NCBI GenBank assembly: GCA_045112395.1
Contig: JBGUHW010000021.1
Location: 4,482 to 68,481 of the forward strand
Direction: 5' to 3'
DNA from: Bacteroidales bacterium
GTDB lineage: Bacteria > Bacteroidota > Bacteroidia > Bacteroidales > ML635J-15
DNA length: 64,000 nucleotides
Shown piece by piece: positions 20,535 through 62,255 of the stretch (its first letter is position 1; every line of letters begins with the position of its first letter). The notes beneath the pieces were generated by a model. The model was not told the DNA's origin, ran no database searches, and saw only the letters and a list, made by a program, of their open reading frames with translations. Both the position numbers and the translations under genes were made by a program.

Positions 20535-20561
20535 AGCGGAGATTTATTCTCCGCTTTTTTT
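20535..20561 (+). terminator. Intrinsic terminator after pruA
   Basis: agcggag/ctccgct stem plus T7. Confidence 0.85.
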
Positions 20562-20589
20562 ATGACAACTATATACAAGACTCTAATCA

Positions 20590-20750
20590 GTCATTCCGCA
20601 AGTTAGAACAATAACGCGATACGGAACGGGGAGCGTAATATTGTTCAACTGTGCGGAATCTCCAACAGATATCGTTTCAACAGGAGATTTCGTACAGACA
20701 GGCTCACAAGCAAAGTTCATTTTGCTGTTCGCTTTGTCTTACGGAATGAC
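20590..20750 (+). repeat. Structured ~160-bp repeat element, copy A (MITE-like or small RNA-like), bounded by 13-bp inverted termini gtcattccgcaag/cttacggaatgac
   Basis: Aligns over its full length, apart from the central loop, to the reverse complement of 51378-51534. Contains three internal hairpins. Confidence 0.8.
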
Positions 20751-20799
20751 GAAGAGGCTTAATACAAAAGTTATGTGTCAACATGTATAGAAGCCTTTT

Positions 20800-21324
20800 T
20801 TATTTCAATTGGTATCTTGTAATAGCAGAAGCAATCTGCTCTACAATTTCGTTCTTGTCGGCATTTGTGCAGTCGATTGTGATTTTTGCCATGGAATAGA
20901 ACGACTCGCGATTGCCGAGAGTTTTCTCAACATATTCTGCAAGTTCTTCTTGCGTTTTTTCTGCCGTTAGTGGGCGGGTTTTAACCGAATTGTAGATTCT
21001 TGTCGCAAGGACATCGGGCGGAAGTTTCAAGTACACTGTGACTCCAATAGAATTCATCAGTTCCATATTGTTGTTGAAGCATGGTGTTCCACCTCCGCAC
21101 GACATTACAAAATTATCATTGCCGGAAAACGATTGCAGAACTGTCGTTTCCAACTTTCTGAAGCATGCTTCGTCGTATTTTGCAAAGATTGATGAAACCG
21201 ATGTGCGGTATTTTGATTCTATCTCGGAATCGAGGTCGTAGAAATCAAGGTTGAGAGATTTGGATAGCAGCCGACCTATTACGGACTTGCCAGCCCCCAT
21301 GAATCCGACAAGAAATATTCTCAT
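20800..21324 (-). CDS. aroK: Shikimate kinase
   Basis: 174 aa with Walker A GFMGAGKS and a shikimate-kinase-like core (GGG...). Confidence 0.9.
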   Translation of the reverse strand: MRIFLVGFMGAGKSVIGRLLSKSLNLDFYDLDSEIESKYRTSVSSIFAKYDEACFRKLETTVLQSFSGNDNFVMSCGGGTPCFNNNMELMNSIGVTVYLKLPPDVLATRIYNSVKTRPLTAEKTQEELAEYVEKTLGNRESFYSMAKITIDCTNADKNEIVEQIASAITRYQLK

Positions 21325-22083: not shown

Positions 22084-22370
22084 CCGTAGTTTATCTATAA
22101 AATCGCGTACAAAAATATAATGCCAGAAATAATAAAATTCACACGAAACATAAAGTAATCAACACATTAGTGTTTATTACCATTTATAACCCTCGGATTT
22201 TCAGGCAAAAGCGGTTTTAAGCATAAGATACAGCAAAAATATCATAAAGATAAATTATTGATATTGAATGTATTAGTAATCAATCGTTGCCATATAACGA
22301 TAGTAGCATCTATATTGTAAAGACGCAAAATTTTGCGTCTCAAAAAATGAATATTGTGCAATGTCCCACC

Positions 22371-22426
22371 CATTGAATCTTTAAATTTTTGAATTATTGA
22401 ATTTTCAAATCATCGAATTATCAAAT
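22371..22426. repeat. Degenerate tandem array, 7 units in strict 8-bp register (nnTYRAAT)
   Basis: cattgaat ctttaaat ttttgaat tattgaat tttcaaat catcgaat tatcaaat. Confidence 0.6.
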
Positions 22427-22431
22427 TTTAT

Positions 22432-22439
22432 TACTTTTG
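22432..22439 (+). promoter_or_regulatory. -7 box (TActTTTG) upstream of pyrH
   Basis: TAnnTTTG 21 nt before ATG 22460. Confidence 0.4.
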
Positions 22440-22459
22440 TGACCTAAAAAATTATTGCG

Positions 22460-51377: not shown

Positions 51378-51534
51378 GTCATTCCGCAAAGTAGAACGAA
51401 CAGCATAAGGAACATTGCTTGTGAGTTCACTTATACGGAATCTCCTTTTGTGTACTAATGAGAGATTCCGCATAGTCGAACAATACAACGCTCCTCGTAC
51501 CGTATCGCGTGTATGTTCTGACTTGTGGAATGAC
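51378..51534 (-). repeat. Structured ~160-bp repeat element, copy B (inverted relative to copy A)
   Basis: Reverse complement aligns to 20590-20750. Same inverted termini (gtcattccgcaaag / cttgtggaatgac). Confidence 0.8.
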
Positions 51535-56670: not shown

Positions 56671-56676
56671 AAGCAA

Positions 56677-61212: not shown

Positions 61213-61239
61213 AAAAGGACGGCGTAAGTCGTCCTTTTT
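61213..61239 (+). terminator. Intrinsic terminator after the 524-aa gene
   Basis: aaaaggacg/cgtcctttt stem plus T-run. Confidence 0.85.
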
Positions 61240-61252
61240 AAATTTACACCAA

Positions 61253-61365
61253 AAATTCTCAAATTCTCAAATCATCAAATTATCGAATGATTGAATTGTT
61301 AAATCATTGAATTATTGAATCATCAAATTTTCAAATTTTCAAATATTTCAAATCTTTGAATCATT
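61253..61365. repeat. Degenerate tandem array, 8-bp units (RAATNWTY), 12 in strict register then a +1 slip and 2 more
   Basis: aaattctc aaattctc aaatcatc aaattatc gaatgatt gaattgtt aaatcatt gaattatt gaatcatc aaattttc aaattttc aaatattt | c aaatcttt gaatcatt. Confidence 0.85.
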
Positions 61366-61980: not shown

Positions 61981-62255
61981 TTCGATTCATTGAATCCTCA
62001 AATCCTTGAACATTGAACCCTTAACCTTAACCCTTAAACCTTGAACTTTAAACCAGAAACATAGAAACGTGAAACATAGAAACGTGAAACCTTGAACCTT
62101 AAACAAAGAAACCCAGAACCGGGCGTCAGCCCATTAAACGCCGCAGGCACAGAAACGGCGTAGCCTTTGAACATTGAACCCAGAAACCTGAAACGGCGCT
62201 AGCCCTTGAAACCCAGAAACGGGCGTCAGCCCATTAAACGGCGTAGCCATTAACA
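61981..62255. repeat. Composite degenerate array: 7-8-bp units (TTGAACC/TTAAACC/AGAAACG) followed by six AAAC-plus-GC-mini-palindrome modules
   Basis: Contains an exact 15-bp tandem duplication (62061-62075 and 62076-62090). A 33-bp repeat with 1 mismatch lies exactly 100 bp apart (62108-62140 and 62208-62240). Confidence 0.75.

Follow-up and report, generated by a model that had tools for sequence, protein, structure and literature searches.

An intergenic repeat family of rumen Bacteroidales formed by an inverted pair of DNA hairpins on the frame of the Neisseria Ssn motif, with one copy carried in by a miniature transposable element

The DNA considered here is a stretch of 64,000 nucleotides from a Bacteroidales bacterium (GenBank assembly GCA_045112395.1, contig JBGUHW010000021.1, positions 4,482 to 68,481 of the forward strand), called the window below, which carries two copies of a structured element of about 160 bp. 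Copy A (20590-20750, + strand) is flanked by an aldehyde dehydrogenase (pruA-like) gene and a shikimate kinase gene, whose ends converge on it, while copy B (51378-51534, - strand) lies between a DeoC gene and a small open reading frame (ORF); an exact-protein lookup with the pruA product of the window matched no record. A first-pass annotation, made from the sequence alone, had described two inverted copies of one element in intergenic DNA after these two gene ends, and both points are confirmed. The copies can be aligned from end to end with a mean column identity of 81%, some flank included. A repeat finder reports the same pair as two blocks, 20588-20662/51462-51536 with 85% complementarity and 20678-20750/51378-51450 with 75%. 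The termini read GTCATTCCGCAAG...CTTACGGAATGAC in copy A and GTCATTCCACAAG...TTTGCGGAATGAC in copy B, and the start GTCATTCC and the end GGAATGAC are common to both. Both copies fold much more stably than shuffles, the z-scores being -7.7 for copy A and -8.2 for copy B on the strand shown, and about -6 on the other strand. It is considered probable, at roughly 0.62, that the element is an inverted pair of DNA hairpins on the frame of the Neisseria Transformation Sequence (NTS)/Ssn motif, read by an Ssn-type GIY-YIG nuclease, and that copy A was delivered by a miniature inverted-repeat transposable element (MITE).

The element belongs to a large repeat family. When one genome of each species was scanned for both termini at the proper distance, 103 loci came up, of which nearly all lie in metagenome-assembled genomes (MAGs) of rumen Bacteroidales from cattle, buffalo, yak and red deer; these and further fetched loci are cited below by L numbers. 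A profile search of the fetched loci with nhmmer yielded 97 full copies with 87 distinct sequences from about 15 rumen Bacteroidales MAGs, besides about 20 partial or divergent copies, and 70 independent loci are left once orthologous sites are grouped. The copy search that the first-pass annotation had proposed for its two copies has thus given at least 97 full ones in public genomes, and the number per MAG is high, for example in RUG12182 and RUG10760. By a crude ORF call restricted to long ORFs, 93 of the 97 copies are intergenic, and the whole gap between two genes is often filled; the gene contexts are tandem with the copy in sense in 38 cases and in antisense in 19, convergent in 27 and divergent in 5. 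A literature search for the 13-mer and for Bacteroides MITEs gave no description of the family in the papers covered, and on that basis it is taken as undescribed. No match to the element was obtained by blastn against plasmid and phage collections, and in scans of viral contigs the left-end pattern gave chance matches alone and the skeleton pattern none.

At orthologous sites in different species-level MAGs, the L and R arms defined below are 99.0% and 97.6% identical on average, compared with 94.1% and 91.8% for the 300-nt flanks, which are mostly coding, and in several orthologous pairs the core is 100% identical between flanks of 86-92% identity. The core is therefore under stronger conservation than the adjoining genes at these sites. 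At a few orthologous sites, such as L031/L099, different arm variants are present, which indicates exchange between copies.

The structure was derived from an alignment of the 87 distinct sequences with RNAalifold and explicit pair counts. Two hairpins are found, L in alignment columns 4-73 and R in columns 125-185, which are joined by a variable spacer. In this fold, 98.5% of the cells are paired, double-sided changes occur at 19 pairs, and the covariation score is 0.262 compared with 0.121 in shuffles, none of 500 shuffles reaching the observed value; when the partners are slid by 1-3 columns, all pairing measures collapse. The covariation that the first-pass annotation had noticed thus holds in the larger alignment. 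At the foot of the stems, the pairs 4:73 to 8:69 and 125:185 to 129:181 form in 81-87 of the 87 copies, pair 131:179 is U-A in 41 copies and C-G in 37, and pair 135:176 is A-U in 46 and G-C in 32. The compensatory change noticed between the two window copies (agtt:aact to agtc:gact) proved to be real and general, being C-G in 48 and U-A in 38 of the 87 copies, and the change from G.T to G-C in the central stem is likewise present, copy A having ATTTCG. The stems come in discrete variants that preserve pairing, while the loops and one bulge are constant, namely the apical loops GATACGGAACGGGGA in L and CGTnCCT in R and a conserved UCACA bulge. Folds with DNA parameters also yield the hairpins, and covariation is equally expected of single-stranded DNA hairpins. 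The 13-bp inverted termini of the first-pass annotation exist in both copies; they do not pair with each other, however, as each pairs with a central arm instead, and the right end covaries with the right arm of the central stem. A cloverleaf with paired termini was rejected, because pair 9:180 is broken in 31 and pair 10:179 in 50 of the 87 copies and the alternative partners covary. Kissing-loop contact of the GGAACG loop in L with the CGTTCC loop in R was also rejected, since, on visual inspection, the R loop varies freely at its middle position while L stays unchanged.

The segment between the hairpins has the form CTCC-loop-GGAG with two main loop types, in agreement with the earlier observation that the central loop differs wholly between copies A and B. 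Both types occur in both orientations among the copies, 14 and 25 for the type of copy A and 16 and 13 for that of copy B. The flipping of the central loop, together with the symmetric layout, points to events at the DNA level. In copy A, arm L (20590-20660, + strand) is a hairpin of the Ssn-motif type, with GTC, ATTCCGCA...TGCGGAAT and then C; the variable central spacer (20661-20685) reads TCC-AACAGATATCGTTTCAACA-GGA; and arm R (20686-20750) shows the same frame on the - strand, GTCATTCCGTAAG...CGAAATC, with a single G-to-A change within the GGAAT box. In copy B, arm L (51464-51534) is read on the - strand, the central spacer (51443-51463) is of the second loop type, CATTAGTACACAAAA, and arm R (51378-51442) has the motif frame on the + strand.

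Several rearranged forms of the pair were observed. In L082 (6549-6612), the R arm of 64 nt stands alone, while the orthologous sites in L015 (6483-6650) and L067 (3934-4101) hold the full doublet. "Inside-out" units, consisting of an R arm, 8 nt and a variant L arm (GTCATTTCGGAAGTTATGATGAACC...), occur in L104 (1292-1454), L073 (3558-3766) and L029 (398-600), the last being preceded by a tandem duplication of part of R; these arrangements resemble the module shuffling of BIMEs and NIMEs. In L168 (3630-3857) and L244 (143-364), one arm is split by some 70 additional nt (GCCTTGCAGATGTTTTTATGCGCC...), which form an insertion nested in the hairpin.

It has been reported that the NTS, CGTCATTCCCGCGMAVGCGGGAATCYRG, contains the dRS3 repeat and can be generalized as the Ssn-related motif (SRM), with the string HGTCWYN(0-2)YYVSBRHN(0-5)WNVSBRGN(0-2)RNCYNB and a size of 20-50 nt (Chenal et al., Nat Commun 2025, PMC11893778). 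According to the same study, SsnA is a single-domain GIY-YIG nuclease of 94 aa that binds and cuts the motif only as single-stranded DNA (ssDNA) and on one strand only, RNA and duplex DNA not being substrates; binding depends most on the cytosine directly behind the palindrome and cleavage most on the three bases upstream of it, and ssn genes are typically flanked by the motif (PMC11893778). Each hairpin of the family has the corresponding frame, GTC-ATTCC...GGAAT-C, in L along the top strand and in R along the bottom one. Arm L reads GTC-ATTCCGCA...TGCGGAAT-C-TCC on the top strand and arm R reads likewise on the bottom strand, so that the GAC at the right end is the GTC of arm R on the other strand. 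In all 87 sequences, G1, T2 and C3, the ATTC/GGAAT boxes, the C that follows arm L and the G that precedes arm R are invariant. The base before GTC, scored in 86 copies, is A in 14, C in 38, G in 1 and T in 33, which fits the H of the published motif, and the invariant C is followed by a pyrimidine, mostly T and otherwise C. Of the features of the SRM, (H)GTC 5' of the palindrome, AT-TCC...GGA-AT at the palindrome base and C-Y 3' of it are thus present, and the family is also multi-copy and mainly extragenic, as SRMs are.

Ssn-like genes were found in the same setting. A protein of 114 aa with a GIY-YIG domain (PF01541, E 1e-16) is encoded 2.1 kb from a family copy on the contig of L088, and its gene has GTCAT-hairpin-ATC repeats (TGTCATYCTGAATTTATTTCAGRATCTGA hairpins) on both sides. 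In L088 (1-960), this gene lies within an array of alternating hairpin modules, GTCATYCTGAATTTATTTCAGRATC and GATGCTGAAACAAGTTCAGCATGAC, which repeat every ~150-180 nt on both sides of it, like a neisserial mosaic array. Hairpins of this kind also stand upstream of the genes for homologues of the L088 protein on other rumen contigs, and a profile of the rumen GIY-YIG proteins also finds genes in L167 and L204, two loci that had been fetched by DNA pattern alone; the gene in L167 has doublets of strict SRMs on both sides. The single-domain GIY-YIG proteins of L088, L247-L253, L167 and L204 are 107-143 aa long.

The frame extends beyond the rumen. Among the divergent matches of the genome scan, L094, L103 and L108 from marine Flavobacteriales MAGs keep only the four ATTCCG/CGGAAT boxes and the termini, and a scan of metagenomes for the skeleton of ATTCCG/CGGAAT boxes gave at least 120 loci. 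About one third of the metagenome matches listed belong to the rumen family, and the rest comprise at least 63 other sequence types with a GC content of 31 to 69%. Among the non-rumen metagenome matches listed, 58 of 81 also carry the right end GGAATGAC, although it formed no part of the pattern (about 0.2% expected by chance), and the base before GTC is C in 56 of 81. In high-GC soil and peat organisms, as in marine Flavobacteriales, the skeleton encloses unrelated interiors. In some of the metagenome relatives, one arm is exactly ATTCCCGCCTTCGCGGGAAT, and intermediate forms, metagenome doublets of the same skeleton with one arm that is a strict SRM or an exact NTS, were found in L150, L204 and L242 and six times in L167. 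L103 (4063-4592), from a Salibacteraceae MAG, holds a divergent doublet three times in tandem with a period of 189 nt and a conserved 37-nt spacer. The skeleton was also seen in L013, a Hyphomicrobiales MAG, as GTCATTCC...CCGGAATCC...GGATTCCGG...CCGGAATGAC, and in a looser version in L084, an Arenicellales MAG; first taken for chance matches, these two are probably real relatives in Proteobacteria.

The arrival of copy A could be reconstructed from its flanks. The pruA-like gene is followed by a terminator-like hairpin (GCGGAGATTTATTCTCCGC, 20536-20554, + strand), which lies outside the element and is kept in L115/L116, and the T-tract of this hairpin is the insertion target of the copy A unit. 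The unit comprises 232 bp (20564-20795), beginning with GACAACTATATACAAG at 20564 and closing with CATGTATAGAAGCC at 20795. Its left shell (20564-20589, + strand) includes the outer inverted repeat GACAACTATATACAAG, which is shorter than the consensus GGnAACTATATACAAGTTGACTAAA, and its right shell (20751-20795, + strand) carries the outer inverted repeat GTGTCAACATGTATAGAAGCC. An 8-bp target-site duplication, TTTTTTAT, flanks the unit at 20556-20563 and 20796-20803; the first-pass annotation had seen none, and it lies 26 and 45 bp outside the coordinates given there. In L115/L116, whose shikimate kinase has 88% protein identity, the spacer is 50 nt long and has a single octamer TTTTTTAT without the element, which is the empty site in a relative that had been proposed as proof of mobility, while L118 (shikimate kinase 94%) carries the same element as copy A. 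Copy A arrived within a 232-bp MITE, and its insertion is proven by the empty site. In L112 (3520-3776; aroK 89%), a different insertion of about 207 nt lies at the same octamer target in the pruA terminator T-tract, which suggests that this tract is an insertion hot spot.

Units of this class, termed class 1, occur at about 20 loci including copy A and have the outer repeats GGnAACTATATACAAGTTGAC...GTCAACAyGTATATAGnnnCC. Beyond copy A, perfect 8-bp duplications were found for seven class-1 copies, all AT-rich (ATAAAAAA, AAAAATAA, ATAAATTA, ACAAAAAA, AAAATAAT, TTAATTTT and ATTAAAAA), and for several copies of a second shell class. The latter has the ends GGCTCTAGTTT...AAACTAGAGCC, also written GGCTCTAGTTTGATATT.../...AAAACTAGAGCC, and 8-bp duplications such as AAATTAAA, AAAATCAT and TTGTCAAT; its AT-rich 8-bp duplication and GGCTCT- ends presumably liken it to the ISL3 family. 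A joint test for outer repeats and duplication was positive in 17 of 97 copies compared with 10 of 285 controls with mismatched flanks. The core occurs in both of these unrelated shell classes and, without any shell, at about 40 loci, and transposon ends thus do not define it. The 160 bp of the core are carried along as cargo and are not themselves the transposon. The earlier suggestion of a non-autonomous MITE is therefore correct for the 232-bp unit around copy A and incorrect for the core itself, which is shared by at least two unrelated shells.

Around copy B, no outer inverted repeat or duplication was found, and at its site in L123/L125/L126 (DeoC 80-82% identical) a short terminator-like hairpin alone stands before a homologous small ORF. 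A further empty site lies in the window itself at 56671-56675, where L056, from a red-deer MAG, has a 211-bp insert and the window has nothing. This insert consists of 14 nt, a family core and 35 nt, sits between the stop codon of a 973-aa ORF upstream and the start codon of the ORF that follows, and has flanks that are 90-95% identical to the window. No autonomous insertion sequence (IS) with the same ends was found in 1.7 Mb of fetched loci or in the plasmid and phage collections, and a search of the fetched loci for coreless shells, that is, solo outer repeats, gave only chance near-matches inside genes. Right at the core borders, there is no duplication, the exact matches of 0-3 nt being at chance level. 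Insertion of the IS200/IS605 type at a fixed tetranucleotide was considered and rejected, there being no conserved tetramer in the left flank.

Taken by analogy with Neisseria, these features make an Ssn-type nuclease the most likely reader of the hairpins, one that would bind and cleave them. Since arms L and R stand back to back, whichever strand is single-stranded would show one forward motif. The putative reader would be a small single-domain Ssn-type GIY-YIG nuclease encoded elsewhere in these genomes, which would bind the hairpin as ssDNA and nick it a few bases 5' of GTC. In Neisseria, restriction of incoming ssDNA and modulation of recombination have been shown; by analogy, such a reader might mark or restrict ssDNA during uptake, transfer or repair, whereby recombination would be shaped. 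Dispersal is shown in part: at least two MITE lineages carry the pair as cargo, and copy A came with the 232-bp MITE that entered the pruA terminator T-tract with duplication of 8 bp. In the reconstructed events, the hairpin pair seems not to be mobile on its own, and the copies without a shell may have arisen from decayed shells, by recombination between copies or by an Ssn-linked route.

Several observations weigh against this assignment to the Ssn motif. The published SRM string has no match in the window on either strand, the stem-loops are 65-71 nt long and not 20-50 nt, and the ATTCCG of the stem departs from the string, which calls for a third C/G-rich position there. The long stems, the conserved apical loops and the UCACA bulge exceed the needs of the known motif. 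The short hairpins beside the rumen Ssn-like genes read GTCATCCTGAA...TTCAGGATC and not GTCATTCCGCAAG, and no nuclease gene flanked by exact GTCATTCCGCAAG hairpins was found among the fetched loci; as the flanking hairpins differ from GTCATTCCGCAAG, these genes are no more than candidates for the cognate nuclease of the family itself. For the proteins, Pfam gives the general GIY-YIG domain only, the assignment to cd10448 (CDD) was not obtained, and the nearest solved structures are weak UPF0213 matches; within the 64-kb window, there is no Ssn-like gene. The mispairs, about 68 G.T and about 24 A.C with 38 of the 68 coming from one column, do not point clearly to either strand. Natural transformation is not known from these organisms.

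Three other explanations have been weighed against this one. A plain MITE family, moved in trans by a DDE transposase and with internal palindromes that are incidental remains of a parent IS, would explain the outer inverted repeats, the AT-rich 8-bp duplication and the clean empty site of copy A, the similar duplications of the second shell class and the differences in presence and absence between relatives. However, it is the interior that is conserved and not the ends, the core sits in two unrelated shells and at about 40 shell-less loci, at orthologous sites it exceeds the coding DNA beside it in conservation, and its stems covary while the loops stay constant; the skeleton moreover recurs with unrelated interiors in the soil, peat and marine organisms, and the sampled DNA, plasmids and phages hold no autonomous element with these ends. 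A plain MITE accounts for the arrival of copy A but not for the conservation pattern, and as an explanation of the family, it is unlikely. A structured RNA, either a small RNA (sRNA) gene family or a cis-acting mRNA element such as a 3' stabilizer, terminator or processing site, would agree with the strong covariation and conserved loops, the very low folding z-scores, the position of copies directly behind gene ends or in tight gaps within one operon, the 2:1 excess of the sense orientation in tandem contexts (38 vs 19) and the ordinary terminator hairpin that replaces copy B in relatives. The Rfam scan proposed by the first-pass annotation, run on the window and five related loci at gathering and permissive thresholds, nevertheless gave no relevant match at any threshold, and one third of the informative copies (19 vs 38) are antisense, while the orientation bias may stem from orthologous redundancy or replication direction. 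In addition, the central loop occurs in both orientations, which would alter an RNA sequence, the element is a symmetric pair with the same motif on opposite strands, and the shell-less copies have no conserved promoter-like sequence upstream. The known reader of the motif, SsnA, does not act on RNA (PMC11893778). On the whole, no observation speaks specifically for an RNA role, a structured RNA is distinctly unlikely, and the sRNA gene family suggested earlier is not upheld.

The third explanation, for which the first-pass annotation had offered a REP/BIME-like element, is a REPIN-type doublet with a RAYT (IS200/IS605-like) or a target array of an IS110-type recombinase as proposed for dRS3 of Neisseria. 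It draws on the intergenic, multi-copy inverted hairpin doublet, the modular mosaic variants, the R-L "inside-out" units that recall BIMEs and the fact that dRS3 is a known phage integration target. The sequence frame is nevertheless that of NTS/SRM and not of REP, the conserved left-flank tetranucleotide required by IS200/IS605 elements is missing, and the only recurrently associated gene found is GIY-YIG; no transposase gene, including Y1 (HUH), was noticed near any copy, no systematic protein search for Y1 having been run. This possibility, for which no gene speaks in either its REP/RAYT or its IS110-type form, is accordingly very improbable, although the REP/BIME-like label comes closest in spirit, since the element is an inverted pair of hairpins of the protein-recognition type whose frame is that of NTS/Ssn rather than REP/RAYT. 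In REPINs and BIMEs, a single-copy gene flanked by the same hairpins is the presumed partner, a layout that the family would share. With the REPINs/BIMEs and RAYTs of Enterobacteria and Pseudomonas, it also has in common intergenic inverted doublets of protein-recognized hairpins that persist at orthologous sites and vary in modular fashion, but its candidate partner is a GIY-YIG nuclease instead of the HUH Y1 transposase, and the motif differs.

The NTS/SRM hairpins of Chenal et al. (2025) share with the family the frame of (H)GTC, an ATTCC...GGAAT palindrome and C-Y, in which the positions critical for SsnA are invariant here, and in both cases the repeats are multi-copy, oriented and almost never within genes. 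Ssn-like genes flanked by such hairpins are present in the same genomes, and metagenome relatives of the family have one arm that matches the published strings exactly. Unlike those hairpins, the ones of the family always form an inverted pair with a variable, flippable spacer, and they are 65-71 nt instead of 20-50 nt long, with conserved apical loops and a bulge. Some copies ride in MITEs with terminal inverted repeats and target-site duplications, whereas MITEs, doublets and the Bacteroidota as hosts are unmentioned in the main text of that study (PMC11893778). The dRS3 repeats and NIMEs are similar in that ATTCC(C)...(G)GGAAT inverted repeats bound modular, recombining intergenic units (Bentley et al. 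2007, PMC1797815); mosaic variants exist here as well, and the GIY-YIG region of L088 is a NIME-like array of alternating hairpin modules. The dRS3 unit has 20 bp of the form ATTCCC-N8-GGGAAT, whereas the window copies have ATTCCG and a structured stem of at least 50 nt lies between the half-sites, and the copies of the family are mostly solitary doublets and not long arrays; the window copies accordingly do not consist of such 20-bp units in arrays. NIMEs have been reported as Neisseria-specific (PMC1797815). Compared with bacterial MITEs such as Correia elements, RUP and bcr1, the copy A unit is likewise small and non-coding, with terminal inverted repeats and an 8-bp duplication, and lies behind a terminator with an empty site in a relative, but ordinary MITEs conserve their ends, while here the conserved part is an interior shared by shells with unrelated ends.

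The description of Ssn nucleases and of the hairpin motifs they read dates only from 2025 and draws mainly on Neisseria and other Proteobacteria (PMC11893778). The present family places the motif frame in rumen Bacteroidota as well, where it is much larger and under strong constraint, with the inverted pair as the natural unit, which offers a readable motif on either strand. The same pair skeleton is found in very different organisms, with a GC content of 31 to 69% among the matches listed, and one concrete dispersal route, as cargo of ordinary cut-or-copy MITEs, has its insertion proven. The roughly 90 aligned natural variants with compensatory changes could serve as a guide to Ssn recognition, Ssn enzymes having been proposed as ssDNA tools. 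A more speculative extension, to which we assign a low probability, is that the doublet is the non-autonomous partner of the ssn gene, in a system like REPIN/RAYT that is driven by a GIY-YIG single-strand nuclease. Because Ssn cuts a few bases 5' of GTC and each arm is turned outwards on its own strand, the two predicted nicks would coincide with the outer borders of the doublet. If this were true, the doublet would be an excisable or copyable unit with the MITE ride as one of two routes of spread, the expanded stems with invariant loops would recruit a second factor, and the high identity of the core would reflect either ongoing conversion by the machinery or host domestication as a control point for incoming ssDNA.

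Other repeats in the window concern neither copy. The intergenic arrays at 22332-22453 and 61234-61363, family D1 of the repeat finder, are built from about 7 and about 14 units with an 8-bp period, TTGAATTA/TCAAATCA/TCGAATTA and similar. At 62108-62249, two direct repeats of 42 nt (GAAACCCAGAACCGGGCGTCAGCCCATTAAACGCCGCAGGCA) are 90% identical and lie 100 nt apart.

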